Positions 33,525 to 62,387 of a stretch of DNA of 64,000 bases are shown here, one piece after another (the stretch's first letter is position 1; the number at the start of each line of letters is the position of its first letter). Origin of the DNA: a virus; IMG/VR virus record IMGVR_UViG_3300047170_000049, positions 95,289 through 159,288 of that record; one strand, given 5' to 3'. Position numbers and translations under genes: made by a program. Below the pieces are notes generated by a model. The model was not told the origin of the DNA, did no database searches, and was given only the letters and a program-made list of their open reading frames with translations.

Positions 33525-33551
33525 TAAAGTTTTTAACGGTTATGCCGAAGA
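33525..33551 (+). promoter_or_regulatory. sigma28 (FliA)-type promoter
   Basis: TAAA-N15(GTTT...)-GCCGAAGA. Confidence 0.75.
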
Positions 33552-33591
33552 GATATTGAAAGTTGAAACTTAATCTTTAAAGGAGTAGTTA

Positions 33592-34758
33592 ATGAATATC
33601 AACACATTTAAGAAAGCCGTCCCGTTCCTGTTCAAAGCGGAAGTGGTGCCCTTTGTTTGGGGTCCTGCAGGCGTAGGTAAAACCACTGCGATGAGACAAG
33701 TGGCCGAGGAACTTGGCTACGGTCTTATTGTGTTCCATTTGGGTCAAATGGGCGACGTAGGTGATTTGATTGGTTTGCCTGACATTGTGTACGAAACTGA
33801 CCCAGAAAAGATTAAAGCTGGTAATGGCAAACGTAAGGGTTACACTACGTTCATGCCTCCAGAATGGGTGCCCACTGAAGGTAAGTGGATTATCTTCTTT
33901 GACGAATTGAACCGCGCACGCCGTGACTTGCTCCAAGCCGTGTTCCAACTTATCCTTGAGCGCCGCACACACTCCATTGAGTTACCTCCTGAAACACGCT
34001 TAGTGGCCGCTGGTAACCCTAACACGGATGAATTCACCGTCACGGACATTACCGACGGAGCTTTCATGGACCGTTTTTGCCACATTAAATTGACATCAGA
34101 AACTGGCGAATGGTTAGAGTTTGCTAAGAAGAGCGCATACGCTCCTGAAGTTATTGGGTTCATTCAACAGAACTATAATAGCCTTGGTAACGATATGCCA
34201 GCTTTTGACCTGGAACGTAAGCCTTCACCCCGCTCATGGGATGCAGTCTCACGCTTGGTCAAGACTGAAATTGACACTGACCTTCTCCTAGACCTTGCCA
34301 CTGGACTATTAGGCGTTGCCCCTGCCACCGCGTTCATTGAACACATTAAGAACGCTGAGAAGCCAGTTAAGGCCGAAGAAGTGCTAAACAATTTTAGCGT
34401 TGTTAAAGCCACCATAACCCGCTTTAGCGACCCTTTGAACCCAAGACAGGACTTGCTCAAGGTTACGATTGATGACCTCTTAAAGCTCCTTGAGACGCAA
34501 AAGAGCGTTAGTTCTGCCCAGGTCCATAACGTTGTTGACTTCTTCATGACCATTCCCCTTGAAATGGCCTTCTTTGCCTCCAAAACCTTGTTCACAATCC
34601 AGGATTGGATGAAGCACATGGTAGCCCGTAAAGACTTTATTGCTCACCTTGATGGAGTTAAACCCATGAAGGATAAGCTCAAAAAGCTTGAAGCAGAAAG
34701 AATTGCGCAAGAGGCTGAAAAGAATAAGCTTTCTGGTGGCACCGATTCTGGTATTTAA
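33592..34758 (+). CDS. MoxR-like AAA+ ATPase
   Basis: WGPAGVGKT, FFDELNRA, AAGNP, DRF, PSPRSW. Confidence 0.88.
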   Translation: MNINTFKKAVPFLFKAEVVPFVWGPAGVGKTTAMRQVAEELGYGLIVFHLGQMGDVGDLIGLPDIVYETDPEKIKAGNGKRKGYTTFMPPEWVPTEGKWIIFFDELNRARRDLLQAVFQLILERRTHSIELPPETRLVAAGNPNTDEFTVTDITDGAFMDRFCHIKLTSETGEWLEFAKKSAYAPEVIGFIQQNYNSLGNDMPAFDLERKPSPRSWDAVSRLVKTEIDTDLLLDLATGLLGVAPATAFIEHIKNAEKPVKAEEVLNNFSVVKATITRFSDPLNPRQDLLKVTIDDLLKLLETQKSVSSAQVHNVVDFFMTIPLEMAFFASKTLFTIQDWMKHMVARKDFIAHLDGVKPMKDKLKKLEAERIAQEAEKNKLSGGTDSGI

Positions 34759-34761
34759 TCC

Positions 34762-34788
34762 TAAAGTTTTATAGGGAAATACCGAATA
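34762..34788 (+). promoter_or_regulatory. sigma28 (FliA)-type promoter
   Basis: TAAA-N15(GTTT...)-ACCGAATA. Confidence 0.7.
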
Positions 34789-34808
34789 TTAGAATGCAAC
34801 TGACACTA

Positions 34809-34843
34809 GCTCTATGGATGGAGCGTACCCCAAGGATGGGGTA
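34809..34843 (+). promoter_or_regulatory. tandem CsrA/RsmA-type ANGGA hairpins in 5' leader
   Basis: GCTCT-ATGGAT-GGAGC and TACCCC-AAGGAT-GGGGTA. Confidence 0.65.
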
Positions 34844-34875
34844 AATCGAGACCGCCAAAACAATGAGGGGTTAAA

Positions 34876-36054
34876 ATGATAGACGAAGCAATCATGTACC
34901 TAATCCAAAACAAGCCGTTCTACGCTCACTTGGTTATGGGGATGCGCAAAGAGTTTACTGACCGCGTTCCTACCGCTGGCGTGAACATCACGGACAAGGT
35001 TAATTTGTTGATTAACCCTAACTTCTGGAAGTCAATGAATGCCATAGAGCAAGCTGCCATTCTTGAGCACGAATGCTTGCATGTGGTCATGAATCACTTC
35101 AAACGCCGTGAGCACCGCAAACCCCGTCTTTACAACATTGCAGCGGACATGGCCATTAACGAATATATTAAAGGTCTTCCCAAAGAAATTAAAATCTTGG
35201 ATAAAAAAGGCAATCCAGTTATTAACTCTAAGACTGGTGAACAGGTTACAGGCAAAACTGTATTCCCTGCCGACTACCAACTGCCTTCACGACAAACTTC
35301 TGAGTTTTACTATGAAGAGCTTCAAAAACAACAAAATGATAAACAAAAGAGCGAAGGTGAGCCAGAATATCAACCTGGCGGTGACACCATTGATGACCAT
35401 GATTGCTGGGATGAAAGCATTGATAATGACGAGGTTATTGAAGAGAAAATCAAGAACCTAGTTAAGCCTGCAATGGAAGAAGCGCGTAAAGCTGGTAATA
35501 TGCCTTCAGAAATTTCTAAGCTGATTGACCGCTTATTCCACAAACCTAAAGACTGGCGTAAAGACCTCCAGAAGTTTGCAGCTAAGACCACTGAAGTTAT
35601 TGGCGATACATCACGCAAAGTGCGTAACCGCCGATATGGAATCATCTTCCCTGGTTATGTTAAGAAAGAAAAACTCCGCTTGGTTGTGGCCGTAGACACT
35701 TCAGGTTCAGTGAGCCAAGAAGAGCAAACCCAGTTCATGGCCGAGATTCACAAAATTCACCAACAAGGCGCTACCGTGTTTATCATGGAAGCCGATGCAG
35801 CGGTTCACGCCGTATATGAATACGACCCTAAGAAGCCCATTAAGTTTAAGGGTGGTGGTGGAACTGCATTTGGTCCAGTATTTGAAAAAGCTACCGAGCT
35901 TAACCCAGATGGTCTTATTTACATGACCGACGGTGATGACTGGGGTCCAGAAGCCAAGAAGCCAGCTTATCCGGTTATGTGGGCTCTTCTCCGTGGACGC
36001 GATGTGCGCTACAAATGGGGTTCAAAAACTTTCATTGATGTGAAGAAAAAATGA
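34876..36054 (+). CDS. metallopeptidase plus vWA domain protein (DUF2201-like MoxR partner)
   Basis: EHECLH, NIAADMAIN, DTSGS MIDAS, GGGGT.F, TDG. Confidence 0.85.
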   Translation: MIDEAIMYLIQNKPFYAHLVMGMRKEFTDRVPTAGVNITDKVNLLINPNFWKSMNAIEQAAILEHECLHVVMNHFKRREHRKPRLYNIAADMAINEYIKGLPKEIKILDKKGNPVINSKTGEQVTGKTVFPADYQLPSRQTSEFYYEELQKQQNDKQKSEGEPEYQPGGDTIDDHDCWDESIDNDEVIEEKIKNLVKPAMEEARKAGNMPSEISKLIDRLFHKPKDWRKDLQKFAAKTTEVIGDTSRKVRNRRYGIIFPGYVKKEKLRLVVAVDTSGSVSQEEQTQFMAEIHKIHQQGATVFIMEADAAVHAVYEYDPKKPIKFKGGGGTAFGPVFEKATELNPDGLIYMTDGDDWGPEAKKPAYPVMWALLRGRDVRYKWGSKTFIDVKKK

Positions 36055-36389
36055 GCTACCGTACCTTCACTTTAGAAGATGTTATAGAGCAAAAAATTTT
36101 CATGAAAGACGGGGTGGCTTACAAAGCCATTGCGTTTTGCGAACACCCTACAATTATTCTTGAAAATATCAAGACGGGTGAGCAGGAGCATCATGTGGTT
36201 CATTGCTTGAATATTCAGGCTTTCAAGCCACTAGGCCCATGTAGAGATTGTGGCGGCACCGGCAAGACCCATTATTGGGGCAGACCTGATGATGAAATGC
36301 AATGCCAATTTTGTAAAGGCGTTGGTGAGATTTTAAATTCAGAAGATTTGCGAGATTACTTTAAACTTAGGAAGCTTCTCCGTGGATAA
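36051..36389 (+). CDS. DnaJ-type Zn-finger small protein
   Basis: CRDCGGTG...CQFCKGVG; tail DYFKLRKLL. Confidence 0.6.
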   Translation: MSYRTFTLEDVIEQKIFMKDGVAYKAIAFCEHPTIILENIKTGEQEHHVVHCLNIQAFKPLGPCRDCGGTGKTHYWGRPDDEMQCQFCKGVGEILNSEDLRDYFKLRKLLRG

Positions 36390-36552
36390 ATGTGGCGATT
36401 GTGGTGGGCAAGGCTGGTATGCAGTTCATCAAGGTTTTGACCCACCAGAGCAAGTACAATGTGAATTATGTGAAGGGTTTGGTGAAATCCTAACCCCCGA
36501 GGAAATGGGTCGTTACCTGCAACTGTGTGACATACTATATGGAAGTGTGTAA
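36382..36552 (+). CDS. DnaJ-type Zn-finger small protein (not in ORF track)
   Basis: GTG start; MDKCGDCGGQG...CELCEGFGEILTPEEMGRYLQLCDILYGSV. Confidence 0.65.
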   Translation: MDKCGDCGGQGWYAVHQGFDPPEQVQCELCEGFGEILTPEEMGRYLQLCDILYGSV

Positions 36553-36715
36553 AGCCTGTGATGGTCGTGGCATTATACAACGGGAAGTGTTTACTTATCA
36601 CCCACCCGCATGGGAAGAAGAACAGTGCGAACCTTGTTACGGCACCGGAATGGCCTTCTTAACTGAAGAAGAGTATGAGAATTACATCACACTTTGGAGA
36701 ATTTTGAATGAATAA
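36539..36715 (+). CDS. DnaJ-type Zn-finger small protein
   Basis: CKACDGRG...CEPCYGTG...LTEEEYENYITLWRILNE. Confidence 0.65.
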   Translation: MEVCKACDGRGIIQREVFTYHPPAWEEEQCEPCYGTGMAFLTEEEYENYITLWRILNE

Positions 36716-37259
36716 TTTAAAAGGCCAAAGATTTGGTCGATTAAAGGTCATTTCCAGGTCCACGAACGCATCTAGACGCGTCACCTGGTTATGTCAATGT
36801 GATTGCGGTAAGAACAAAATAATTAATGCGTCTAATTTAACTACAGGACGGTCCGCATCTTGTGGGTGCTTAAGAGTAGAAATATCGAAAAAGAAATTAA
36901 AAGCTGTTAAAAGAACCAAATTTGATAAAGGCGAATCTTCATTAAACGTGGTATTTTACAGATATAAGTACCAAGCGAAACGAAGAGGTATTGAGTTTAA
37001 TCTGACTAGAGACCAGTTTAAGGTTTTAACTAAAGAAGTGTGTCATTATTGTGGAGTATTGCCTGAAAAATCATTTAAAGGCCATCGTTCTAACGGCGAA
37101 TATGTATATAATGGAATTGACCGTATCAATTCTGATAAAGATTATACCCTGGATAATGTAGTCCCGTGCTGCGAAACATGCAATAAAGCTAAACTGCATC
37201 TATCCTATGATATTTTCTTAAATTGGGTGCGACGCATTGCACGGTATCAAGCGATATGA
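36708..37259 (+). CDS. HNH homing endonuclease-like protein
   Basis: GQRFGRLKV, WLCQCDCG, SCGC, CHYCG, GIDRINS..DY..DNVVPCC..CN..K. Confidence 0.8.
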   Translation: MNNLKGQRFGRLKVISRSTNASRRVTWLCQCDCGKNKIINASNLTTGRSASCGCLRVEISKKKLKAVKRTKFDKGESSLNVVFYRYKYQAKRRGIEFNLTRDQFKVLTKEVCHYCGVLPEKSFKGHRSNGEYVYNGIDRINSDKDYTLDNVVPCCETCNKAKLHLSYDIFLNWVRRIARYQAI

Positions 37260-37417
37260 GTAGTCCCTGCGATACTTGCGGTGGTTACGGCGAACACTAT
37301 GCCCCTGATGTATCAAAACCAGTATTGATAACCTGCTATGATTGCGACGGGACTGGATATGAGTTTACCCAGCAAGAAATGGAAGACTACTTAAAGCTGA
37401 AAAAAATCTTAGAATAA
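37256..37417 (+). CDS. DnaJ-type Zn-finger small protein
   Basis: CDTCGGYG...CYDCDGTG...FTQQEMEDYLKLKKILE. Confidence 0.65.
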   Translation: MSSPCDTCGGYGEHYAPDVSKPVLITCYDCDGTGYEFTQQEMEDYLKLKKILE

Positions 37418-37428
37418 CTTTAAAACTT

Positions 37429-37436
37429 ATGATATA
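37429..37436 (+). promoter_or_regulatory. ATGATATA promoter motif (class II variant)
   Basis: Intergenic, before AAGGAG. Confidence 0.45.
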
Positions 37437-37458
37437 TTAAAACTTAAGGAGCATAACG

Positions 37459-37686
37459 ATGAAATTTTTAACTTTGTTCATTTTGCTAGCCGCATTAATT
37501 TCCACTGCCTGTACCGAGCGCACACCATATGGCCCTTGCATTGGTGCTTTTGATGATAAAGACGCTAAGGTGATTTACAAGCCAAGTGTTAAGAATATTG
37601 TAATAGGAATTATCTTCTCAGAAACCATTGTGGTCCCTGCCGTAGTGCTTTTATCCGAGACCGTTTGTCCCATTGGAAACAAATAA
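37459..37686 (+). CDS. small lipoprotein
   Basis: Signal plus STAC lipobox; second hydrophobic segment. Confidence 0.55.
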   Translation: MKFLTLFILLAALISTACTERTPYGPCIGAFDDKDAKVIYKPSVKNIVIGIIFSETIVVPAVVLLSETVCPIGNK

Positions 37687-38017
37687 GGAGTTACTCATGA
37701 CACGACTTTTATATAAATCAAACGATACTGGCCTTTTGGCTGCAAAGCAAATCATCACCCTTAAAGATGGTCGCAAAACCACCGTCTTGATTGACTCCAA
37801 TGCCCTTGAATTTAATGTGGTTGATATTGCTGATGCTACCATTTTAGCAGGTGGAACGGCCAAGAGTCTCCGCGAAGTTAAGTATGCGGCGCGAAAGACC
37901 TTACTGGAGCTTGGTGCAGATATTGGCATTGAAGTAAAGTCTGCCGTTAAGAAGTTTAATAACCTTATGAAGTCCGAGGGTTCAGGTGATACAGCTAGTA
38001 ACGAATCTTCTAATTAA
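37673..38017 (+). CDS. hypothetical protein
   Basis: AAGGAG RBS before ATG 37697. Confidence 0.6.
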   Translation: METNKELLMTRLLYKSNDTGLLAAKQIITLKDGRKTTVLIDSNALEFNVVDIADATILAGGTAKSLREVKYAARKTLLELGADIGIEVKSAVKKFNNLMKSEGSGDTASNESSN

Positions 38018-38483
38018 GTTCTGCGAGAAGACTGGCCGCGTGTTCAACATCACGGGCACTGGTGCAGATACGGATGTGTACTTAATACGGTATTACGTCA
38101 TTAGAAGCAAGTATTTTAACTTTTTCATTCATAAGTTCTTGCGTAGTGACCGTGATGATTTGCATGACCACCCATGGAACTTTGGAACGTATGTGGTTAA
38201 GGGTGGTTACACTGAACAAAACCTTAACCCTTATACGGGTAAGGTTGACTTATTCCCTAAAGAACGTAGCGTAAATAAGAACCGATGGGCCACGCGCAAG
38301 GCTGAAGCAGTTCATCGCGTTGTTGTAGATAAAGAGCTTACGGTAGACCAACAAGACCAAGCTACGATTACCCTATGCTTAACTGGCCGTACACGCCGTG
38401 AATGGGGTTTTATCAAAAATGGACAATGGATTAACTGGAAGAAATATTTAGGTCTTCCCGATGACACTGGGAGTAGAGGATAA
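37986..38483 (+). CDS. cupin-fold phage protein
   Basis: YLIRY, HDHPW, GGYTE, HRV, R.WGF. Confidence 0.65.
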   Translation: MIQLVTNLLIKFCEKTGRVFNITGTGADTDVYLIRYYVIRSKYFNFFIHKFLRSDRDDLHDHPWNFGTYVVKGGYTEQNLNPYTGKVDLFPKERSVNKNRWATRKAEAVHRVVVDKELTVDQQDQATITLCLTGRTRREWGFIKNGQWINWKKYLGLPDDTGSRG

Positions 38484-38630
38484 TATGAAAGTTGACGACC
38501 AACATCAAAAAGTACAAATCACCCTAACATTTGCAGAAGCTGAAAAACTCTGGGTTATTCTTGTTGACTCAATGGATGATACAAGTTTTGCCAAAAAATT
38601 GACTGACAAGCTTAATGAGTATTTGAACAC

Positions 38631-39026
38631 ATGAAAACCGTATTAGTTGTAGGGCGAAACCCTTCACAATTAAATACCGACCCAAGGATTCCCTTCATTG
38701 GTGCAAAGTGCCGCAAGACCCTTGCCCTATGGATTGGCGAGTTGCATGTTCCCTACCAGTTCCTGTTCGTAAATGCGATTGACGAAGTGGATGCGGTTTT
38801 CAATAGCGATACGATTCACGATGCCGCTTGCAAGCTTATTTGTGAGAAGTACGACGCTCAAGCCGATAAGGTTATTGTTTTAGGTAATGATGCTGAGAAG
38901 GCGGCTAAGGCTGCCAAGACGGATTACTTTAAGCTTCCACACCCAAGCGGTCGTAACCGCAAGCTGAACGATAAAAGATTCATCTCACGCGAACTTAAAA
39001 AGTGCAGGGAGTATTTAGTAAAATAA
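38631..39026 (+). CDS. uracil-DNA glycosylase-like protein
   Basis: VGRNPS, VIVLG, LPHPSGRNR. Confidence 0.75.
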   Translation: MKTVLVVGRNPSQLNTDPRIPFIGAKCRKTLALWIGELHVPYQFLFVNAIDEVDAVFNSDTIHDAACKLICEKYDAQADKVIVLGNDAEKAAKAAKTDYFKLPHPSGRNRKLNDKRFISRELKKCREYLVK

Positions 39027-39505
39027 TGGAATTAGTTCTTTATCCAAACCCGATTTTGAGCACCCCAACAGAACCTGTCACGGAGTTCAATGAAGAGCTT
39101 CATAAGGCTTTGGATGAGATGGTGCCCATAATGGACAAGCACGATGGTATTGGACTAAGCGCAAACCAAGTGGGCATCAGCAAAAGTTTTTTCATCATGC
39201 GCGACCTTAAAGGCAAGCTTTGGGAAATTATTAACCCCAAGATTGTCCGTGTAGATGGGGTCCAGTGCTCACTTAAGGAAGGATGCTTAAGCCTCCCTGG
39301 TGTTAAAGCTGAAATTCCTAGACCCGAACAGCTTACAATAGAGTTTCAAGACCGTAATGGATACGAGATGAAGATTGGTGCATGGGGCATTGAAGCCGTG
39401 TGCATCTCCCACGAGATAGACCATCTTTTAGGTATCTTCTTTATGGAAAAATTAAGCCGCCAAGCTAGAAGAGCGGCGTTAAGAGAGGCAGGAAAGAATG
39501 AGTAA
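39026..39505 (+). CDS. def: peptide deformylase
   Basis: GIGLSANQVG, EGCLS, HEIDHL.G; TAATG overlap start. Confidence 0.93.
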   Translation: MELVLYPNPILSTPTEPVTEFNEELHKALDEMVPIMDKHDGIGLSANQVGISKSFFIMRDLKGKLWEIINPKIVRVDGVQCSLKEGCLSLPGVKAEIPRPEQLTIEFQDRNGYEMKIGAWGIEAVCISHEIDHLLGIFFMEKLSRQARRAALREAGKNE

Positions 39506-39824
39506 AGACGCACATTATCACCCACACATTATTGGTGCTTTCAAGTCCACTGGTATGGAATACAACCAATGGGCCAAAGACTTCCACGCTTGGTTCATCA
39601 AAGACTTCATTCAAACTCACCCAAATATTGCCTTGGACTTTGATATGCAAGCTCACATGGCCGACATTGATGGAACGCAGCTTGAAGTGCTGGACGTGGT
39701 TGAGTTTAGCGAAGTTTTCACTTTGCACGTTTTAATTGAGCTTTACTACTCCACCAAGGGCTTAAGCACGGACACACCTCCAGATGAACCTAAAACCAAA
39801 AAGAACTTGAGGTTAATGCAATGA
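39498..39824 (+). CDS. hypothetical protein
   Basis: Coupled ORF. Confidence 0.55.
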   Translation: MSKDAHYHPHIIGAFKSTGMEYNQWAKDFHAWFIKDFIQTHPNIALDFDMQAHMADIDGTQLEVLDVVEFSEVFTLHVLIELYYSTKGLSTDTPPDEPKTKKNLRLMQ

Positions 39825-39878
39825 CAAAACCTAGCACTCCTACAAAAATATTGGTATTTAGCTACTTAGCCATTTTAA

Positions 39879-40205
39879 TTGGGTTTGCGTTTTATCTTTC
39901 ACATACGCAGCCTACCCAAGCAGAGGTTACAAGTGAGCATACTAAGTAAAACCGTAGTTGAAGCCATGAAAGCTGGCACGGACCTGGGCCTTATTCGCTC
40001 ACACGAGACCTTGCGTGCTGAAGTTGAGCGACTTACGGAGCTTAATGAGAAATTAGTGGCAGCGGCTAAATTGGGTTATGATGCGGCAGAAGGTCATATC
40101 CATGCGTTTGTTGAGACCCCAGAAGATAAGGCTGACTGCTTAGAAGAGATTGAGCCCATTAAACAAGTATTAAATGAGGTAAAACCAGATGGCGAAGAAT
40201 TATAA
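39879..40205 (+). CDS. hypothetical protein
   Basis: ORF, start uncertain. Confidence 0.45.
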   Translation: MGLRFIFHIRSLPKQRLQVSILSKTVVEAMKAGTDLGLIRSHETLRAEVERLTELNEKLVAAAKLGYDAAEGHIHAFVETPEDKADCLEEIEPIKQVLNEVKPDGEEL

Positions 40206-40512
40206 GCTTTACAACTTCTTAGTAAACACCTACGGCCTTTCCAAAGAGAAGGTCATGGAACACTTTGAAGCCCGTATTGAAGCTATCATTGAGAAATCTA
40301 TCCGTTCTAAAATTGATTCAGGCTATGTGCAAGATGCCATTCTCAATAAGATTGCTGCCATTTTTAAAGAAGGTGGGGATTCTAACCGCTCACCTTGGTA
40401 TCACAAGAAGACGTTTGATGACTTCCTTAAGCACACCGTGGAAGACGTAATTAAGAAGCACATTGAAGAAAAATATGAGTTTGCGGTTAAAACCAAGAAG
40501 GATAATGTATGA
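40189..40512 (+). CDS. hypothetical protein
   Basis: GAGG RBS. Confidence 0.6.
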   Translation: MAKNYKLYNFLVNTYGLSKEKVMEHFEARIEAIIEKSIRSKIDSGYVQDAILNKIAAIFKEGGDSNRSPWYHKKTFDDFLKHTVEDVIKKHIEEKYEFAVKTKKDNV

Positions 40513-40916
40513 AAAATAAAGCCAATCCAGGTACCAATCCATTTTTCTCTTTCATCTTAACACTGATGTTCTTTTCTAATATATTTTTACTCATAGGATA
40601 TCTGCAATTATCTTCAGAGGTTAAGCATTTGGAATTCGTTCAAGTGTCCATGTCGTCGTCTAAAGACGACAAGTCAGAACCACCGCAATCACCCGTACCA
40701 TTGTTTAAGACCTACCGTTTTAAATTTGGTCAAAAAGTACAAGTGGTTGGCTCTGGAAGTATTTTTGAGGCGTGCAAAGGGCGCATCACGGGTGTTCTTA
40801 ATTACTACGATACGGATGCACCAATATATCAACTTGACTTATACTCTTGTCCAAATGCCCCTAAAACCCTCCATGGTATTAGGTCAGGTGAAGAGTTCTT
40901 ACTTGAGGTTAATTGA
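40509..40916 (+). CDS. membrane-anchored SH3/KOW-like protein
   Basis: TM; FKFGQKV...C.G.I...YQL...C. Confidence 0.5.
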   Translation: MKNKANPGTNPFFSFILTLMFFSNIFLLIGYLQLSSEVKHLEFVQVSMSSSKDDKSEPPQSPVPLFKTYRFKFGQKVQVVGSGSIFEACKGRITGVLNYYDTDAPIYQLDLYSCPNAPKTLHGIRSGEEFLLEVN

Positions 40917-41194
40917 TGAAAAAGCTTTATGACAAAAAAGATAGAGAAATAAAAGAGTTTGATTTGATAAAGGTCTACCATTTTACTGACCGTCGTAACC
41001 GCAAGCGTTATATGTATAAATGGGTCAAAAGGGCCACGGCGGGTAAGTTAGAGGGCTGGGCTGCGTTTCATTTGAGCCACGACAATGGATTCTTTTGGCT
41101 AGCGGCTATTGCAGAAAACAATGGGGTCTTGCCTGATGTTGAAATTATTCAGCGCGGATGCAAAGACCAAACAGAAGATGACAGAAATATTTAA
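40913..41194 (+). CDS. hypothetical protein (YopX-like start)
   Basis: DKKDREIKEFDLI. Confidence 0.5.
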   Translation: MMKKLYDKKDREIKEFDLIKVYHFTDRRNRKRYMYKWVKRATAGKLEGWAAFHLSHDNGFFWLAAIAENNGVLPDVEIIQRGCKDQTEDDRNI

Positions 41195-41210
41195 GAATTT
41201 ACTCAACTTT

Positions 41211-41218
41211 GTGATATA
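41211..41218 (+). promoter_or_regulatory. GTGATATA promoter motif (class II)
   Basis: Intergenic. Confidence 0.5.
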
Positions 41219-41226
41219 GAGGTCTT

Positions 41227-41433
41227 ATGAATACTATCAAAATAGTCATTTTTACCTTAGCTCTAATTGGAACGCTTTTCACCATGAAAACGCTTCACCA
41301 AAGGGCTGAGAGGGCTAAAGTTTTGAACGAGGCAAAGGCTTGCGTAGAAATCCAAATCCAGTTTTGTAAGATGCTGGAAGAACCTAGATGGTGTGACTTT
41401 GATAACATCATCAGCATGTGTAGCCAACAATGA
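41227..41433 (+). CDS. small membrane protein with four Cys
   Basis: N-terminal TM. Confidence 0.55.
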   Translation: MNTIKIVIFTLALIGTLFTMKTLHQRAERAKVLNEAKACVEIQIQFCKMLEEPRWCDFDNIISMCSQQ

Positions 41434-41705
41434 AGATAGACTTTCTTTACGCATTTGTCGCGGGTTGTTTTTGTACAGCATTCTTGGGATGCTTGAGCTT
41501 CTCAAGTGCGTTGCCTCAGTTTCATTACGGTGACCGCGTGAGCTTCACCCACCGTGACCCATTTTACGTTAAATGTACGGGTGTGATTTACAGTCACAAC
41601 CATTCCGACACTTACCAACTTACAGATGTTCAATGCAATGGCAAGTCAGTAGATGGAAGTTACTTCATTGATTCTGCCAAAGCTTTAAAGAAGGTAATGC
41701 AATGA
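41430..41705 (+). CDS. membrane-anchored or exported SH3/KOW-like protein
   Basis: Hydrophobic N-terminus; FHYGDRV...C.G.I...YQL...C, paralogue of 40509. Confidence 0.5.
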   Translation: MKIDFLYAFVAGCFCTAFLGCLSFSSALPQFHYGDRVSFTHRDPFYVKCTGVIYSHNHSDTYQLTDVQCNGKSVDGSYFIDSAKALKKVMQ

Positions 41706-41917
41706 CCTACGCCCTTTACGACACTGAAACAGAAGCCTATTTAAAACGGTTCAACGTGTATAGCGATGCGCTTCTCTATATGGCTGAAAACAAAGATGAA
41801 ATTCTTAAGTTTGAATCTAACGAAGCGGCCACTGAACACCTAGCCTTATTAAAGGCTTTTCATAAGAAGCACGATAAATCATGGATGGTGGATACTTTTG
41901 AGGTTCGCGAGGTCTAA
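41702..41917 (+). CDS. hypothetical protein
   Basis: ATGA-coupled ORF. Confidence 0.55.
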   Translation: MTYALYDTETEAYLKRFNVYSDALLYMAENKDEILKFESNEAATEHLALLKAFHKKHDKSWMVDTFEVREV

Positions 41918-44190: not shown

Positions 44191-44192
44191 AA

Positions 44193-44654: not shown

Positions 44655-44655
44655 A

Positions 44656-50657: not shown

Positions 50658-50684
50658 AATCTGAGGCAAAACTAGGGAAATAAC

Positions 50685-55175: not shown

Positions 55176-55214
55176 TTTTAATACCTATCCTTAAAGTTGC
55201 AATGATACTTAAAT

Positions 55215-55224
55215 CATTAAGATT
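55215..55224 (-). promoter_or_regulatory. AATCTTAATG candidate late promoter (class III)
   Basis: Identical 10-mer at 58471-58480, both about 40-46 nt upstream of minus-strand genes. Confidence 0.45.
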
Positions 55225-55259
55225 ATTGCCTAAGTTGTTCATTTCACTGATAAAAAATC

Positions 55260-58136
55260 TTATAACTGACCCACAAAATGAGGTTGGAAATAAAGGTTGT
55301 TGCCATCGACCACACCGACAATAACCACATTAAATCCAGTAGGATAGGTGGGTGTTGAGGGTGGAGTAGAGGTCATAACGCCTGGGGTTTGACTCAAATA
55401 GAGGTATGCTCCGTGCGTAAATCCACTAAGGATTGCAGGGATATAGCCGCTATAGGCCACTAAGCCTGATGCGCTGTTAGCGATTGAGTTAACGGTTACT
55501 CCAATGACTCGACTTTGGTTGGCCACTGAGCCCGTAGCGGGTGCAATGTTACCAGGTGAAGGCGAGTAGACTGGAGTGCCTGCAGGGATAGTTGAGCCTG
55601 AAGTATTAACACAAGTCTTGCTGAGGTAGTTTTGGCCTGAACCTGCCACCAAAGCGTTAAGCGTTGCGGTAATGTCCGTATCAATGCTATTTCCTACAAA
55701 GTGTAAGTCATGGCTGTTATCGACATAGAGACCGTCTTGGCCAGAAGCTAATGGGGAAGAGCTTACTGGAGTGAGTTGAAGTCCAGTGGGGTCGATTACG
55801 CCTGTTACTTCAATGTCACCATTGAATATTGCGGCCTTCTCTGAGCCTGAAGCTGTGATGGTTACTGGTTGTCCAGGTACGTTCGCGATGGTATTTCCAC
55901 CGTTGTAGGCATTTTGGAGTGAACCGCCACCTGCCGTAGAGTTAATCGTAACTCCGTTAGCACCAGGGGTTAGAGTAATGTTCGAGCCTGCTACTAAAGA
56001 TTTGAACTGAGCATCGGTGCCAGACACGCCTGCAGCAATTCCAACACCCGTACCAAGGTTAGAGATGGTAGCAATGCCACCGCCTCCACCACCACCGCTT
56101 GAATTATTGCCGCCGATGGTAGCAATACGGAAGTGAACGCGTGAATCATTAGGTAATGCGTAGTTAAATGAGATGTGCTGGTTATCAATTGCAATCCAGT
56201 CGGCACTTCCACCTTGGGTCTTATAAAGTTGGTTGAGGTAAACTTGTAAGAAACCCGCTGAAGGCGAGAAGAACTGAGGATTATTACTGTCACGCGTATT
56301 ATTTGGAAGCGTGATGCTGGTATTAGCTGCTAATCCAGTGGGGTAATAAATCTCTTCGTCATAAACTGGAGTTGAAATCGTCTGGTCAATCTTACCTATG
56401 GCTTGTGTGAGGTTTTGACCATCGGTAACGACTGTTAATGGACGAGTGGAGTATTGAGAATAAATAGGAGTTGAGTCAGTTTCACTCGTCGAACCAATGT
56501 ATTGTAGGGTTTGACTTGAAACGTGGTCATCAATGTTGATGCTTTCGCCTTGGTTTAGAGCGCCAAAGTTACGGATATAGATTTTAGCTGTATCGGCAAC
56601 TGTACCACCTGAGCTTGAACCATCTGCATCACCAGTTTGAATGTAAGTGAATGATGTGGTTGTGGGCACGGTAGCAACGTTGAATTGACCGTCGTATGTG
56701 GTATCGGCCACACCAGCAATCTCTACGGTTTGTCCCACGGGAATGTTATGTGGGGCAGCGGTGACAACGGTGGTAATACCGCTTGCACGACTAATACTGG
56801 AAATCGTCGCCGTATTAAATGCGAAGTCATCACGTTTGAAGAACCAATAAGTATTAGCTGATGCAGGAACATTAACTGGGTCTGCAACGGCCATGGTGTA
56901 ATTCTGGATTGACTTTGTAGCTTGGTCGAATGTGGTTACGCCTGTGTAACCCTTATCGAGAGTAATCACTGCACCAGTAATGTCAGTGATTTTACGCCAT
57001 ACTGAGATGTCGCCACCCTTTGGTTTAATCCAATCGCCTACGGAAATATTCAATACGGTTCCTAAACCTTGTACGGTCACTGAACCATTGGTGAATGTGA
57101 ATTCATTGGAGGGTTGGAAGTCAATATCACGTTGGAGTGAGATGTAACCGACTTGTTGGTCTAAGAGGTTAAGTGAACCTGGAGCGATTTGATAAATCAA
57201 ATCACCCGTAATGGACTTAACGAATAAGTCTGAAGTCCATGAGATTTGCCCTGGAGTAACGTTTGAGTGGACAAATACGCCTGCACCGTCGATTAACGAG
57301 TCATTGGAGTCTTGCCAGTCAGTGAATACGCTGATGCCTGTAGCTTGCGTAGAACCGTTTGTGTACCAGTAAGCGCCGCCGTTCAATTGCTTGAGCACGG
57401 TCATTACTGCGTCCATCCATTGCTTGAAATTGGTCAAGTCCCAATCACCGCCTACGAATGGGTCAGCGGCTGAACTACCAGAAATGGTCAATGGATTTTC
57501 TAATGCAGGATTGAATACGAAGGTGTTGTTTGGATTAGGTGTAGCGCCACCAGTTCCAAGACGAAATAAGCTTTGTTTACAATTAGTGATTTCTAAGATT
57601 TGGTTTGACGCATTAGTTTGTACGATAGCGATAGGCGCATTAGTTCCAAAGCCAGTCGTATTAATAACGAATTGGTAGTTTAATACGATACCAGTTGGAA
57701 CGGTACGAGTGAATTCGACTTTAGCGTCAACGTCCCAAAATGAAAGCAAGTCATCTGTGCTCGAATCAGTTGCTTTAGAGAACTGAACGGCAATGTAGTT
57801 AGTGGAGTTAGCAGTGAAAGAGCCTGTTACTTTCGTATTAGCTGAGTTGAGTTGTTCAGGATTAGTTCCAGGTGCGACGCGAAGAAATGAACCATTGGGG
57901 TCGGTGGGTATCGTTACGATTGCACCGTCAACACTGACCTGTAGGGAAGCTGCAGGAGCATTGATTGCCGTGGGTGTGTTGATTAAGGTGAAGCCCGACA
58001 AGATGTAAGGCGTGTCATTCTGGAAGATTTCCCAAAGGGTTTTAAAGTCATAGATGACGCCATCTTCGATTTCTCGAATCATGGGCACATCGACTCTAAG
58101 CTGTGATAACCAATTGATAGACTGTTTGACTGCCAT
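55260..58136 (-). CDS. virion structural protein (baseplate/fibre-like)
   Basis: 958 aa Gly/Thr/Asn-rich; T.APH...GQTV.I.GV module; structural block. Confidence 0.65.
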   Translation of the reverse strand: MAVKQSINWLSQLRVDVPMIREIEDGVIYDFKTLWEIFQNDTPYILSGFTLINTPTAINAPAASLQVSVDGAIVTIPTDPNGSFLRVAPGTNPEQLNSANTKVTGSFTANSTNYIAVQFSKATDSSTDDLLSFWDVDAKVEFTRTVPTGIVLNYQFVINTTGFGTNAPIAIVQTNASNQILEITNCKQSLFRLGTGGATPNPNNTFVFNPALENPLTISGSSAADPFVGGDWDLTNFKQWMDAVMTVLKQLNGGAYWYTNGSTQATGISVFTDWQDSNDSLIDGAGVFVHSNVTPGQISWTSDLFVKSITGDLIYQIAPGSLNLLDQQVGYISLQRDIDFQPSNEFTFTNGSVTVQGLGTVLNISVGDWIKPKGGDISVWRKITDITGAVITLDKGYTGVTTFDQATKSIQNYTMAVADPVNVPASANTYWFFKRDDFAFNTATISSISRASGITTVVTAAPHNIPVGQTVEIAGVADTTYDGQFNVATVPTTTSFTYIQTGDADGSSSGGTVADTAKIYIRNFGALNQGESINIDDHVSSQTLQYIGSTSETDSTPIYSQYSTRPLTVVTDGQNLTQAIGKIDQTISTPVYDEEIYYPTGLAANTSITLPNNTRDSNNPQFFSPSAGFLQVYLNQLYKTQGGSADWIAIDNQHISFNYALPNDSRVHFRIATIGGNNSSGGGGGGGIATISNLGTGVGIAAGVSGTDAQFKSLVAGSNITLTPGANGVTINSTAGGGSLQNAYNGGNTIANVPGQPVTITASGSEKAAIFNGDIEVTGVIDPTGLQLTPVSSSPLASGQDGLYVDNSHDLHFVGNSIDTDITATLNALVAGSGQNYLSKTCVNTSGSTIPAGTPVYSPSPGNIAPATGSVANQSRVIGVTVNSIANSASGLVAYSGYIPAILSGFTHGAYLYLSQTPGVMTSTPPSTPTYPTGFNVVIVGVVDGNNLYFQPHFVGQL

Positions 58137-58146
58137 AATTAAATCC

Positions 58147-58425
58147 TTAAACCGTTAAATCGCAAGTAATGACAAGTGGGTTGTAAGCGGGTTGGCCGCA
58201 TTTCATGCAAGAAGGTGGGACGGTCCCACCCCACATGCCTGGTGGGTATTGATGCTGACACGGGCCATAAATAGGCTGAAGCTGCACTGGGTGAATATGA
58301 TTATGAAAAGGCTGCGCTTGTCTAAGTACCTGAATTAATTGGTCTTTTGCTTCAATGACTTGCTGCAGAGTCTTGATTTGTTCTTGCAATAGCGCAACGG
58401 TGTCTAGATTTTCTTTAGAGTCCAT
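58147..58425 (-). CDS. small coiled-coil plus Cys/His protein
   Basis: CQHQY...CMKCG. Confidence 0.55.
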   Translation of the reverse strand: MDSKENLDTVALLQEQIKTLQQVIEAKDQLIQVLRQAQPFHNHIHPVQLQPIYGPCQHQYPPGMWGGTVPPSCMKCGQPAYNPLVITCDLTV

Positions 58426-58470
58426 AATTTACCTTAAATATAGAGAAGCAGAGATGGTGGGAAATAACTA

Positions 58471-58480
58471 CATTAAGATT
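58471..58480 (-). promoter_or_regulatory. AATCTTAATG candidate late promoter (class III)
   Basis: Head of minus-strand structural block. Confidence 0.45.
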
Positions 58481-58521
58481 TTAAGCTAACTACTTAATAT
58501 CATTATGTTTTAATTTTCTTC

Positions 58522-58548
58522 TAAAGTTTCTTTTGAACTTACCGATAG
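58522..58548 (+). promoter_or_regulatory. sigma28 (FliA)-type promoter
   Basis: TAAA-N15(GTTT...)-ACCGATAG. Confidence 0.8.
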
Positions 58549-58589
58549 GATATATGTAGGGCATAACAACAAACATTAAAAGGTGGGAT

Positions 58590-59057
58590 ATGAAGACCGA
58601 AGTTAATAAGAACGTAAGGCGAGTAAGAGAGTCGATAGTAGCCAAGCGGGAGTATCAAGTAATCGAGCGCAATCTTCAACGTAATACAATAAAAGTAATC
58701 GACGTTGAAACGGGCGACTCGTTCCACACCCATGTTCCAATACTTGGGGCAGCATCATACTTCAGCATTGGCACCATTATTGTGATTCCCCAGCTTTATA
58801 AGAAAAGTGCCGCATCAAACCTTGGCAATCGACGTGATGCCAAGCCTGTAGCTGAACCTGCACAACTCGTGACCAATTATTCGATGGAACGTAGTCGCGC
58901 ATTAACTGCAATATACAAGCAAATGGCTCGCCTCAGTAAGCAATGGAATGAAGAGTTCAGGGCTAATGGCTCAGAGAATAAAGATATATTAGAGAAATTG
59001 AAGTATGAAATCAATAAGTTAAAGGCTTCATACGAAACCTTGAAACATTCCCCATAA
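58590..59057 (+). CDS. hypothetical early protein
   Basis: First gene after sigma28 promoter. Confidence 0.6.
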   Translation: MKTEVNKNVRRVRESIVAKREYQVIERNLQRNTIKVIDVETGDSFHTHVPILGAASYFSIGTIIVIPQLYKKSAASNLGNRRDAKPVAEPAQLVTNYSMERSRALTAIYKQMARLSKQWNEEFRANGSENKDILEKLKYEINKLKASYETLKHSP

Positions 59058-59080
59058 GTTTTATGGAAATAGGCCGATTA
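59054..59080 (+). promoter_or_regulatory. sigma28 (FliA)-type promoter
   Basis: ATAA-N15(GTTT...)-GCCGATTA. Confidence 0.7.
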
Positions 59081-59103
59081 ATAATTGTAAGGAGATAAAA
59101 GTT

Positions 59104-59466
59104 ATGAAAAAAGTATTAGTAATCGACGATGACTCAATGTTGCTCCAGTGCATGAAGCTGGTGCTAGAAAGCGAGCACTACGAGGTAGTGACGGCTAGCA
59201 ACGGACTGGAAGGCTTAGAAGCTCTGTCGGATGATATTGACCTTATCGTGCTGGACTTGTCAATGCCTGTAATGTCTGGGTCAGAATTTCATGACAAGCT
59301 GCGCGAGCAAGCCGACCTGGACCACATTCCAGTTGTCATCTTAAGCGGTCTTGAACGCCCTGACCCAATTGAATGCGTGGAGATTGTTAAAAAACCCATT
59401 AACGTTATGGATTTACTAGGGATTATTGGCATCTACACTTCAGATGAAAAAGGAGCGGCGGCTTAA
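59104..59466 (+). CDS. stand-alone response-regulator receiver (CheY-like)
   Basis: VLVIDDD, DLIVLDLSMP.MSG, ILSG, KKP. Confidence 0.9.
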   Translation: MKKVLVIDDDSMLLQCMKLVLESEHYEVVTASNGLEGLEALSDDIDLIVLDLSMPVMSGSEFHDKLREQADLDHIPVVILSGLERPDPIECVEIVKKPINVMDLLGIIGIYTSDEKGAAA

Positions 59467-59490
59467 CTTCACTATTTTTTAATAATGTGC

Positions 59491-59517
59491 TAAAGTTCTT
59501 TATGGTCTAGCCGATAG
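59491..59517 (+). promoter_or_regulatory. sigma28 (FliA)-type promoter
   Basis: TAAA-N15(GTTC...)-GCCGATAG. Confidence 0.82.
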
Positions 59518-59535
59518 GATAGATGTAACAAGGAG

Positions 59536-60243
59536 ATGGATATGTTAATCAAATTAACAGAGCAAGACCCTAAGTACATCGTAGACCTCACGGAGCATTT
59601 AATCAATCTTGGCGCTAAGTCCACTAACCAGCCTAACGTGTTAGAAGTGGAAGAGGCTTTCGACGTAGACCAATTCCATGGTGTTGAGAAACTTAGCAAT
59701 CTCCCTATTACTGATTACAAGGAAGAAATCAAATGGCTTCATGCTTACCATGGCAACTTTGAATTCTACCTCAGCTTGAAAACTCAATACGCCACCAAAG
59801 GCCGATTGAGCGATAAACAATGGGCTTCAGTAACCAAAGCAATTCAACGTGACCAGGCTCAAGCCGCACAAAAGGTTAACCAAAAGTTCTCAATAGAAGG
59901 TGGCACCGTAATTGTTCTCAAGAAATACTTCGCCCATGAGCTTGCTCAACAAGCTGGATGCGTAAGACCTCATTATGCGTTTGAAGTGGTCAAGGTTCAA
60001 GCTGAAACTGAGAAGGCGTATAGACTGACCTTGAAACTCACCGCACAGCGCACGACGCATTGCTCCGTATGTGGAATCAAATTGACGAACAAATCATCAG
60101 TCTCAACGGGCATTGGACCAATTTGCGCAGAAAAGTGGGGAATTCCTCAAACTTTAAAAGATTTGGCCGATAAGTTACAGACAACGGTGGAGGTCACTAG
60201 TTGGTTACCTAAAACTGCAATAAAGGAGCGATTTGGAAAATAA
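59536..60243 (+). CDS. DUF6011-like Zn-ribbon phage protein
   Basis: GRLSDKQ; CSVCG..LT...S...GIGPICA. Confidence 0.6.
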   Translation: MDMLIKLTEQDPKYIVDLTEHLINLGAKSTNQPNVLEVEEAFDVDQFHGVEKLSNLPITDYKEEIKWLHAYHGNFEFYLSLKTQYATKGRLSDKQWASVTKAIQRDQAQAAQKVNQKFSIEGGTVIVLKKYFAHELAQQAGCVRPHYAFEVVKVQAETEKAYRLTLKLTAQRTTHCSVCGIKLTNKSSVSTGIGPICAEKWGIPQTLKDLADKLQTTVEVTSWLPKTAIKERFGK

Positions 60244-60245
60244 CA

Positions 60246-60399
60246 TTCGATGATTTGGACCTGCCATCTACCTCTTCATAAGGTGAAGTCTTCGTGCCTG
60301 GGTACTAGGGTAGATGTGATTTGACCAATTTTTATTGTACCCAACCTGCGTGTGTCGGACCCGTGCATTCGTACTGTAACGAAGATAACGGGCATCGAG
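60246..60399 (+). ncRNA. pseudoknotted structured intergenic RNA of unknown class
   Basis: Six stems including a 7-bp pseudoknot (see findings); strand inferred from context. Confidence 0.65.
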
Positions 60400-60423
60400 A
60401 AAATTTAACAAAAGGAGTATTGT

Positions 60424-60723
60424 ATGCAAGGTACAGAAGGATTTATGGACAATCAGTGTGAACACTGTAAAAAACAATTTAGTGATTTAGAGCCTTATGG
60501 GATGGCTGGGAATATACCAGGCGATAGGAATGAAATTTACAGATTTCACATACTTAATGGCGGCATAGCAAATTCATGTTTTGTTAAAGCTTTTGCAAAA
60601 TTTAAAGTACCAAAAGGTTTTGGCCTTGCACTTCCTTTGGACGAAAGTACCATTTCTAAAAAAGCGAAAGAAGAGGCAATATCAAAACTAAAGCGTTTTA
60701 TTGATAAAGTTTACAAGGAATAG
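60424..60723 (+). CDS. hypothetical protein
   Basis: AAGGAG RBS. Confidence 0.6.
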   Translation: MQGTEGFMDNQCEHCKKQFSDLEPYGMAGNIPGDRNEIYRFHILNGGIANSCFVKAFAKFKVPKGFGLALPLDESTISKKAKEEAISKLKRFIDKVYKE

Positions 60724-60765
60724 AAAGCACATAAAGTTTGAAGTGGAACGAGTTGGAGATATTCA

Positions 60766-61131
60766 ATGAAAATTGCGATTGATGTTAAAGGCACACTAGA
60801 AGGTCCCAAGGGCGAAATCATTGCTGAAGCCGCTGCCGTATTAAAAGAACGCGGCCATGAGATTACGGTCTGGTCTAGCCTTCTCTCTTATGCCTACGAA
60901 TGGGTCAAGGGTGCAGGTGAATTCTACGAAATCAGTGGCAAGAAATGGCGACGTGACGTTGAGCCTGAAGAGTTCTATGATGTGGCCATTGAAGACGATG
61001 AGAACCTGGGTGAGATTTTGGCCGCCAACAAAGTCATATATGTTCACGAGTTCAACAGTGTCAATGAATTACTGGGCTTAATTACTGGGGAGAACAATGA
61101 AAACAATATTGACGTTAAGTCTGCTATTTAA
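60766..61131 (+). CDS. HAD-fold-like small protein
   Basis: IAIDVKGTL, VWSS, IEDD. Confidence 0.55.
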   Translation: MKIAIDVKGTLEGPKGEIIAEAAAVLKERGHEITVWSSLLSYAYEWVKGAGEFYEISGKKWRRDVEPEEFYDVAIEDDENLGEILAANKVIYVHEFNSVNELLGLITGENNENNIDVKSAI

Positions 61132-61266
61132 TGTGGTTGGGTACATCTACATAACGGCCTACAAGAAAGATGTGGCTTTTGAGCGAAGCATGGCCAACGC
61201 GCACATTGATATGCTTCACCACGCTTTGAATAGTGACGTTGCCTTTAAAAGGAGCTTGGCTAGTAA

Positions 61267-61596
61267 ATGAAAACGTTCCAACGCGGTGATTGGGTAACTC
61301 TTGTTCCATTTGAAGAATGGATTGGGTACTTGAGAGGCACTAGCGCCGACGGCAATCTTATTGGTGGTCTAGGGCCTGAATCCTTCCGTGAAGATTACAA
61401 CACAATCTTGAGTCGTAGGTCTGCCGTACAAATACTAAACACGCAAATGCACAACATCAAAGGCGTGGAATCTCAAACGGTGGCTATTGACCCGTTTAGG
61501 CCATTCCCTGAATACAGTGCAGAGATATTCCGTTTGCTTACACCAGAAGAGTTGGCCTTGGCAAAGCTTTTGTTTGATGACAAAAGGATAGCTTAA
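61267..61596 (+). CDS. SH3/KOW-like protein, C-terminal helix family
   Basis: FQRGDWV...RLLTPEELALAKLLF. Confidence 0.6.
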   Translation: MKTFQRGDWVTLVPFEEWIGYLRGTSADGNLIGGLGPESFREDYNTILSRRSAVQILNTQMHNIKGVESQTVAIDPFRPFPEYSAEIFRLLTPEELALAKLLFDDKRIA

Positions 61597-61874
61597 TGAC
61601 TTTAAAACGTAAATGGCAATTAGGGGACATCGTTAAAGCGAAGCACGATATGTTTTTGCACCCAGAATACACAACTGACATAACCAAAGCCATTATTATC
61701 CCTGCAGGTACCTTCCTTGAAATCCTAGAACGCTTTTCATTCCTAGGCAACGTTAGCAATATTTTGGTTGGTAAGACCATCCACGGTGCAATGTACGCAT
61801 ACATGGTTAGTCCCAGTGCCGTTGTGCCATTGACTCGTAAGGAGAATGAGATTGCAAGACTCTTATACTCTTAA
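61596..61874 (+). CDS. SH3/KOW-like protein, C-terminal helix family
   Basis: WQLGDIV...PLTRKENEIARLLYS. Confidence 0.6.
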   Translation: MTLKRKWQLGDIVKAKHDMFLHPEYTTDITKAIIIPAGTFLEILERFSFLGNVSNILVGKTIHGAMYAYMVSPSAVVPLTRKENEIARLLYS

Positions 61875-62100
61875 GTTCAAGCAAGGCGATTGGGTGATGT
61901 TTCGTGAAGGCGACGCATGGTGTGTGTGCAGGATAAAGCGTGCTGAAAAGATGCGTGGTGATTATAAGGTGCAATGGCTCTATGATAGCATCAACGCTAT
62001 CAGACAGCGTTATACGCTTATGAGCATTGACGAGACCGATGAAATGGGTCACAAGATGACCGACATGGAAATTAAACTCTTTAAGGTGTTATATGCCTAA
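61846..62100 (+). CDS. SH3/KOW-like protein, C-terminal helix family
   Basis: FKQGDWV...KMTDMEIKLFKVLYA. Confidence 0.6.
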   Translation: MRLQDSYTLKFKQGDWVMFREGDAWCVCRIKRAEKMRGDYKVQWLYDSINAIRQRYTLMSIDETDEMGHKMTDMEIKLFKVLYA

Positions 62101-62347
62101 GTTTAAGAAGGGTGACATCCTTTATATGGAAGAAGAATATTACGGTGCTATGAGTCGCCAACTGATTCAGGTTCTAGGCGTCGAGCCTTACCGTGATGGT
62201 TGGTACGATTATAAAGTGCAAATGATTGTAGACACTTCAGGCCAATACACTGGTAACCCAGATTATTTGCTGCAGGAGATTGTAGACCGTGATGCCATCA
62301 AACTCAATAGAACGCAGGTAAAACTGTTTAAATTGCTCTATACTTAA
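62093..62347 (+). CDS. SH3/KOW-like protein, C-terminal helix family
   Basis: FKKGDIL...KLNRTQVKLFKLLYT. Confidence 0.6.
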   Translation: MPKFKKGDILYMEEEYYGAMSRQLIQVLGVEPYRDGWYDYKVQMIVDTSGQYTGNPDYLLQEIVDRDAIKLNRTQVKLFKLLYT

Positions 62348-62360
62348 TTGCATTATTTCC

Positions 62361-62387
62361 TAAAGTTCTCCGTATTACTTCCGATAG
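62361..62387 (+). promoter_or_regulatory. sigma28 (FliA)-type promoter
   Basis: TAAA-N15(GTTC...)-TCCGATAG. Confidence 0.78.

Follow-up and report, generated by a model that had tools for sequence, protein, structure and literature searches.

Why would a phage place sites that look like promoters of sigma-28 (FliA), the sigma factor of flagellar genes, in front of genes that have nothing flagellar about them, and which protein would read these sites? The question is raised by a 64,000-nucleotide (nt) stretch of DNA (hereinafter the window, whose coordinates are used unless marked as genome) that spans positions 95289-159288 of the virus record IMGVR_UViG_3300047170_000049, which is 159,288 bp long and complete by CheckV. 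A sequence-only reading of the window had pointed out six such sites and assigned them to the flagellar sigma factor of the host. We find that these six sites belong to a set of 12 strong copies in the complete genome, here denoted class A, and that the evidence in the DNA itself supports class A as a real, strand-specific, gene-proximal promoter class. That a host sigma factor of the FliA type reads these promoters is, in our judgment, rather probable.

All six sites in the window read exactly as previously described and occupy gaps upstream of + strand genes. In each, a -35 box of the TAAAGTT type (ATAAGTT in the case of 59054) is followed by a 15-nt stretch that begins with GTT and then by (G/A/T)CCGA(T/A)nn. 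These are all the strong sites of the window; the other six are located at genome positions 13070, 47709, 48530, 64865 and 71830 on the + strand and 71803 on the - strand. The 11 + strand copies are each found immediately upstream of a + strand gene block, and the sole - strand copy, genome 71803, adjoins a late-type promoter. The core shared by the 12 copies, cT(A/T)AAGTTt-N11-gCCGA(T/A)AG, can be compared with the E. coli sigma-28 consensus, TAAAGTTT-n11-GCCGATAA (PMC2859248). Measured against this E. coli consensus, the -35 box matches at 6-8 of 8 positions per site (mean 7.2/8, n=12) and the -10 box at 5-7 of 8 (mean 6.2/8, n=12); CCGA is present in 12/12 sites, the spacer between the octamers is 11 nt in 12/12, and 5/12 sites carry TTAAG instead of TAAAG.

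Several independent counts indicate that the motif is enriched. With at most one mismatch, TAAAGTT-N13-CCGA occurs 9 times in the window versus 1.44 expected (none of 100 shuffles reaches 9), and AAGTT-N13-CCGA occurs 14 times on the forward strand of the whole genome and never on the reverse strand, the backwards-read control giving 1 and 2. In an unbiased count of 4-mer dyads over 80 upstream regions, AAGT-N14-CCGA is among the top three (9 regions; shuffle maximum, 7), and the remaining top dyads represent a second motif. When a position weight matrix (PWM) was built leaving out one site at a time, 12/12 sites scored at least 16.8 bits, and a PWM scan of the whole genome yielded 15 hits compared to 0-2 in 20 shuffles. 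The motif proposed in the sequence-only reading thus holds up as an element enriched genome-wide over shuffled controls, strand-specific, adjacent to genes and in agreement with the sigma-28 consensus, the spacing of the boxes included. The weak extra PWM hits include 60149 and 27899 (15.5 and 16.5 bits). The former has a perfect GCCGATAAG -10 box together with a -35 box of poor match; it falls within the DUF6011 gene, at the 3' end, with 250 nt left to the next gene.

Conservation extends beyond the two boxes, the extended consensus being ttATTTcC-T(A/T)AAGTTt-N11-gCCGA(T/A)AG followed by tATGtAAg, with the information content peaking in the two sigma-28 boxes. The position of the third block was compared with Table S2 of Karunker et al., which gives the -50 to +1 sequences of 140 mapped attack-phase promoters of Bdellovibrio bacteriovorus (PMC3627812). 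In 11 of 12 promoters of the FliA type with mapped transcription start sites, counted by eye, the +1 nucleotide is found 13-14 nt past the first C of CCGA; in the twelfth, the distance is 17 nt, supported by 7 reads (PMC3627812, Table S2). In the phage, the position CCGA+13/14 corresponds to a conserved G or A in the tATG block, and the leaders predicted for 10 of the 11 + strand sites are 10-34 nt long and end at the Shine-Dalgarno (SD) sequence, except for one of 80 nt. Because the third block sits at the Bdellovibrio +1 distance and the predicted leaders begin just before the ribosome-binding site, this block is best read as the start region rather than as a separate -10 hexamer.

Two of the predicted transcripts have features of their own. 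At the site at genome 13070-13103, the +1 predicted from CCGA+13 falls on the first base of the start codon (the A of ATG) of an 81-aa gene, so that the mRNA may be leaderless. The long leader, that of promoter 2, folds at -23.4 kcal/mol (z -2.16), and the loops of its hairpins (UGGA and AGGA), located before the gene for the VWA peptidase, appear to resemble the layout of a CsrA/RsmA-type binding site; an Rfam search of this leader identified no family. The class A promoters of the window and the genes behind them are listed in Table 1, together with the class B and class C promoters described below.

Table 1. Promoters and associated genes in the window
Feature	Position	Strand	-35 box	-10 box	Predicted +1	PWM (bits)	Remarks
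Class A promoter 1	33522..33560	+	TAAAGTTT 33525-33532	GCCGAAGA 33544-33551	~33559	31.6	leader 33 nt to ATG at 33592
AAA_5/MoxR-like ATPase, 388 aa	33592..34758	+					Pfam AAA_5 E 5.6e-8; phrog_1297 ATPase E 5.8e-63
Class A promoter 2	34759..34797	+	TAAAGTTT 34762-34769	ACCGAATA 34781-34788	~34796	30.6	sole long leader, 80 nt
80-nt leader	34796..34875	+					predicted fold with two hairpins, loops UGGA and AGGA
DUF2201 metallopeptidase + VWA-like protein (392 aa), then 112-aa protein	34876..36389	+					Pfam DUF2201_N E 6.9e-24, DUF2201 E 1.8e-21
Class B (late-type) promoter core ATCTTAAT	58472..58479	-					back-to-back pair with class A promoter 3, spacing 45 nt
Class A promoter 3	58519..58557	+	TAAAGTTT 58522-58529	ACCGATAG 58541-58548	58556
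155-aa protein	58590..59057	+					no family match
Class A promoter 4	59051..59089	+	ATAAGTTT 59054-59061	GCCGATTA 59073-59080	~59087	27.2
Stand-alone CheY-like receiver, 120 aa	59104..59466	+					Pfam Response_reg E 7.4e-18; PDB receivers/CheY down to E 1e-14
Class A promoter 5	59488..59526	+	TAAAGTTC 59491-59498	GCCGATAG 59510-59517	59525	32.5	leader 11 nt
DUF6011 zinc-ribbon protein (235 aa) + seven small proteins	59536..62347	+					Pfam DUF6011 E 3.5e-11
Class A promoter 6	62358..62396	+	TAAAGTTC 62361-62368	TCCGATAG 62380-62387	~62394	26.9	10-nt leader beginning at SD AGGAGG
SGNH/GDSL lipase, lipoprotein-type N-terminus (238 aa) + three small proteins	62405..63869	+					Pfam Lipase_GDSL_2 E 1.5e-9
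Class C promoters (examples)	5120, 11855, 15540, 41211						others elsewhere in the genome
Class C promoter (example)	50657	-
Sigma-like gene, N-terminal 161 codons	2..484	-					whole gene genome 94783-95772, 329 aa

The identities that had been assigned to the target genes by eye are confirmed by Pfam, which finds the AAA_5/MoxR-like ATPase, the DUF2201 and VWA domains, the receiver, the SGNH/GDSL lipase and the runs of small proteins. The receiver has all catalytic residues, with D8 and D9 in the acidic pocket, Asp51 as the phospho-acceptor, Ser81 and Lys97-Pro; in a collection of 5.8 billion proteins, it has three homologs (best identity, 61%), all on short metagenome contigs. Apart from the identifiable genes, the targets of class A are mini-proteins without assigned function, and altogether the class heads about 30-35 of the roughly 236 genes of the phage, so the label of accessory genes fits them. 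The view that these promoters drive the early program of the phage is not borne out given this limited share and given that GroEL, DNA polymerase and other replication genes, along with many small + strand genes, are found behind promoters of another class (class C), the extended -10-type tGTGATATAtAG, which is probably read by the primary sigma factor of the host. A further class, class B, with the motif TTAGGnnAAAATCTTAAT, precedes the large - strand structural genes (e.g. genome 13025, 35980, 53752, 64811, 150511 and 153767), and its core, AATCTTAAT, is found 19 times on the - strand versus 2 times on the + strand. Four class A promoters form back-to-back pairs with class B promoters, at a spacing of 45-63 nt. 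Class B is likely to be the late promoter class and the partner of a phage sigma factor that lacks region 4.

This phage sigma factor is encoded by the only gene, at genome 94783-95772, that is matched by the TIGR02937 and FliA_WhiG models, and a six-frame search of the phage genome with the Pfam models Sigma70_r2, r4, r4_2 and GerE yielded nothing above the cut-offs. When aligned to SigA structures, the protein covers regions 2 and 3 and terminates at the first residues of region 4, so that region 4.2 is missing; its N-terminal 130 aa are unassigned. The orthologs found in four related phages terminate identically, at ...LKG(V/I)xL, and the adjacent open reading frame is not region 4. Because the protein breaks off where region 4 begins, recognition of a -35 box in the usual manner is, as judged from its sequence, beyond its reach, and it is probably not the reader of class A. 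A GroES-like 94-aa open reading frame comes after this gene.

The relatives of the phage lead to the same assessment. A complete 118-kb genome (G009) that has about 35 proteins in common with our phage carries six class A-type sites (81.4-92.4 kb), one of them directly before rIIA, a classical early gene in T4, and a profile search of this genome at E values up to 10 detected no homolog of the sigma-like protein. Conversely, four relatives (G002-G005) encode the sigma-like protein and show motif counts at background only, and a 129-kb phage contig in a Saprospiraceae metagenome-assembled genome (MAG), G016:C11, has both the sigma-like gene and four sites near its end. Because all three combinations are found, the sigma-like gene and the class A motif are uncoupled in the relatives. 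The alternative offered in the sequence-only reading, that of a phage-encoded sigma factor with FliA-like specificity, is disfavored by this uncoupling and by the missing region 4.2.

Two variants of the phage are found in other moss samples. In a contig that is ~89% identical, 6 of the 13 spacer bases of the site at 58522 are changed and, among the differences listed, none falls in TAAAGTT or CCGATAGGATA; one of the differences is an improvement from ACCGATAG to GCCGATAG. The conservation of the boxes combined with spacer drift is suggestive of a natural footprint. In the second variant, position 58520 is joined to 59490, with 969 nt skipped and 8 letters shared at the joint. Because the missing stretch, which holds the genes for the 155-aa protein and the CheY-like receiver, runs exactly between two class A copies, the promoter-plus-gene units appear to be gained and lost as cassettes by recombination between promoter copies.

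The motif is not limited to this phage and its relatives. The strict consensus was found in more than 120 IMG/VR contigs, which is a lower bound; by a rough estimate, single hits are probably close to chance, whereas same-strand arrays are not. One phage (G006) has 9 copies in 5 kb, and six others (G007, G008, G010, G011, G012 and G013) have 2-7 copies each, compared to 0-2 in controls. Five of these phages (G006, G007, G008, G012 and G013), which span 32 to 47% GC, have at most 3 proteins in common with one another or with our phage. A C ahead of TAAAG, a spacing of N15 and a start block at an unchanged distance are features that the other arrays all preserve. Scans of the phages Chi, 7-7-1, T5, KVP40 and Mx1 showed background motif counts only. 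In one of the array-bearing phages (G013), a sigma-like hit was considered as a possible FliA and rejected: this 212-aa protein contains two region 4-like helix-turn-helix units and no region 2. What the unrelated array-bearing phages most plainly share is a sigma factor that is widely conserved in bacteria, and it is mainly for this reason that we prefer the FliA of the host as the reader of class A.

Under this preferred scenario, the host RNA polymerase with its flagellar-type sigma factor (FliA/SigD/WhiG class) would transcribe class A, with sigma region 4 binding cT(A/T)AAGTTt and regions 2-3 binding gCCGA(T/A)AG eleven bases downstream. Transcription would begin 13-14 nt past the first C of CCGA, on the conserved G or A, and the very short leaders would lead straight into the ribosome-binding site. 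The class would serve about a dozen compact accessory units that encode the MoxR-like ATPase, the VWA peptidase, the CheY-like receiver, the SGNH lipase and mini-proteins, most of them + strand islands positioned back to back with late promoters. The replication genes would depend on the sigma-70-like extended -10 class and the structural genes on the third class, which probably belongs to the phage sigma factor without region 4. The identity of the reader as host FliA, the start sites and the timing are all inferred here from the DNA.

Several considerations weigh against host FliA as the reader. The conserved blocks ttATTTcC, ahead of the -35 box, and tATGtAAg, located at the predicted start, exceed the textbook sigma-28 consensus and could mark an additional factor. 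Very divergent phage sigma or appropriator proteins, such as gp55 and gp33 of T4, can escape sequence searches. In most bacteria, FliA is scarce and bound by the anti-sigma factor FlgM, which would make it an odd sole driver, and the presence of fliA in the host is assumed. Finally, there is the TTAAG rather than TAAAG in 5/12 sites: in the E. coli aer promoter, single changes at other -35 positions lower the activity about ninefold (PMC2859248). The extra blocks are also what speaks for a reader directed by the phage, either an undetected divergent sigma factor or a MotA/AsiA-like re-aiming of the host polymerase, in which case class A would be a phage-timed (middle) class; class B already looks phage-specific, and many small proteins without assigned function are candidates for such a factor. 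However, a region 4-type domain was not found anywhere in the genome, the occurrence of the sole sigma-like gene in the relatives does not follow that of the motif, BLASTP at E 1e-3 revealed no protein common to all the unrelated array-bearing phages that could serve as a candidate factor, and the resemblance to sigma-28 promoters extends to the spacing and the start distance in addition to the two boxes. We consider a phage-directed reader unlikely.

If the third block were the true -10 box, class A would consist of sigma-70 promoters with an upstream activator site, where TAAAGTT...CCGA is bound by a protein, or of interleaved sigma-70/sigma-28 promoters. At its distance of 8 nt past CCGA, this TAnnAT-like block indeed often reads TAATAT, TAGTAT or TAGAAT, and interleaved dual promoters exist in two of the other phages (G011 and G013), where TTGACA lies within the sigma-28-type spacer and TAGAAT or TATAGT follows 16-17 nt downstream. 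In our phage, however, the -35 sequence at the right distance is only TTTTAA-like (3/6), A is found at position 2 of the hexamer in about 5/12 sites (read by eye), information is highest in the two sigma-28 boxes, and canonical sigma-70 matches are not enriched (12 vs 16.9 and 24 vs 26.3 in shuffles); furthermore, two boxes with a free spacer are the signature of a sigma factor and not of a dimeric regulator. A sigma-70 basis for class A thus seems quite improbable. The variant in which precisely the 969 nt separating two copies are missing implies that the copies act as recombination points, as would be expected if class A were a dispersed repeat for recombination or for another DNA-level function and not a set of promoters. 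Nevertheless, the orientation of the copies strictly matches that of the downstream gene, the predicted start is at a fixed 10-34 nt from the SD sequence and ATG, the spacer is free between two conserved boxes, and the same format recurs in unrelated phages, all of which makes it most improbable that class A is a mere repeat.

The host itself was sought from several directions. The DNA of the window is contained in DNA runs from moss metagenomes; for window 57500-64000, a search of sequencing runs listed no RNA run with this DNA. The phage has a GC content of ~42% and roughly 236 genes, encodes GroEL, a DnaE-type polymerase, DnaB, SbcCD and tail proteins, and has a single tRNA gene, for tRNA-Met. 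A megablast search against cultured phages produced no match, and among cultured phages, Myxococcus phage Mx1 comes closest, its DnaE being 33% identical. In searches for close relatives, the DUF6011 protein gave no match in metagenome contigs, the MoxR-like ATPase retrieved one relative (42%) at a locus that lacks the motif, and a 958-aa protein and DnaE retrieved relatives at about 30-39% identity only. A search for the phage GroEL in bacterial genomes gave no match. Among the ESM Atlas neighbors, the receiver leans to Myxococcota and the lipase to mixed phyla, which are leads only; the receiver homologs, on three short ENA contigs, provide no host pointer. MAG contigs with the phage-type sigma gene were binned as Flavobacteriaceae, Saprospiraceae, Kaiserbacteria and bog 'Deltaproteobacteria', and none of these MAGs showed motif enrichment. 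Because SD-like sequences precede 51% of the phage genes vs 11% at random, SD usage argues against a Bacteroidota-type host.

The sequence-only reading had envisaged a phage of a Bdellovibrionota predator or a flagellotropic phage. The former idea has some appeal given the FliA-dominated attack phase and the TTAAG box in common: in B. bacteriovorus HD100, TTAAG-N16-CCGATA is present in 92 of 140 mapped attack-phase promoters (PMC3627812). Sigma-28 thus drives a broad program in this bacterium, and the TTAAG -35 box and the start at CCGA+13/14 are shared with the phage; in some of the B. bacteriovorus promoters, GGATAG/GATATG-like bases after the -10 box also resemble the phage sequence. However, the spacing in B. 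bacteriovorus is mostly N16, with a range of 15-17 in our own count of about 18 promoters (PMC3627812), whereas that in the phage is N15 in 12/12 sites, and a Bdellovibrionota host is not borne out. Nor is a flagellotropic lifestyle: arrays of this kind are absent from Chi and 7-7-1, both of which are flagellotropic.

The class 3 flagellar promoters of E. coli and Salmonella (PMC2859248) share with class A the two boxes, a spacer of 11 nt and the start distance to be expected. Unlike these, class A is found on a phage that looks lytic, where it heads accessory genes that are not flagellar, and has a preceding C, the ttATTTcC block, a -10 box that ends in G (GCCGATAG) and the tATGtAAg start block. 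A link between phage-borne genes and the flagellar sigma factor of the host, predicted in the case of class A, is known from E. coli, where the FliA regulon includes flxA of the Qin prophage, the expression of which falls 28-fold in a fliA deletion, and ykfB of the CP4-6 prophage (PMC1935009). These are single genes of defective prophages, whereas a dozen promoters organize a set of gene blocks here, in what appears to be a large virulent phage. With T4, our phage has in common three promoter classes per genome and a phage sigma factor without region 4 as the likely reader of a single-block late promoter. The T4 program proceeds from sigma-70 (early) to MotA/AsiA (middle) and gp55/gp33 (late) and is not known to use a host alternative sigma factor, whereas the additional class of our phage copies a host flagellar promoter and not a phage-specific box. 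Sigma-28 promoters as such are textbook knowledge. Our literature search, with subscription journals mostly outside its reach, turned up no description of FliA-type promoter arrays that organize genes of large tailed phages, nothing that links GCCGATAA to phage biology and nothing on the Mx1 genome.

In textbook phage programs, the primary sigma factor of the host acts first and is followed by factors made by the phage. The arrays raise the prospect, which we rate at even chances, that several unrelated lineages of uncultured tailed phages each wired accessory or early-type genes to the flagellar sigma factor of the host. If so, part of the infection program would be gated by the motile state of the host or kept running once sigma-70 is shut off, and phage expression would be tied to host behavior, such as swimming, planktonic life or the attack phase. 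The CheY-like receiver behind a class A promoter hints that the phage may also interfere with the same motility circuit. Such wiring would explain how accessory genes can be carried as self-contained promoter-plus-gene cassettes, and would provide a clue, obtainable from sequence, to the host physiology of uncultured phages. The near-exact match to the E. coli consensus makes the idea testable with standard FliA reagents. If true, this would be a general strategy of phage transcription that we found described in no paper.

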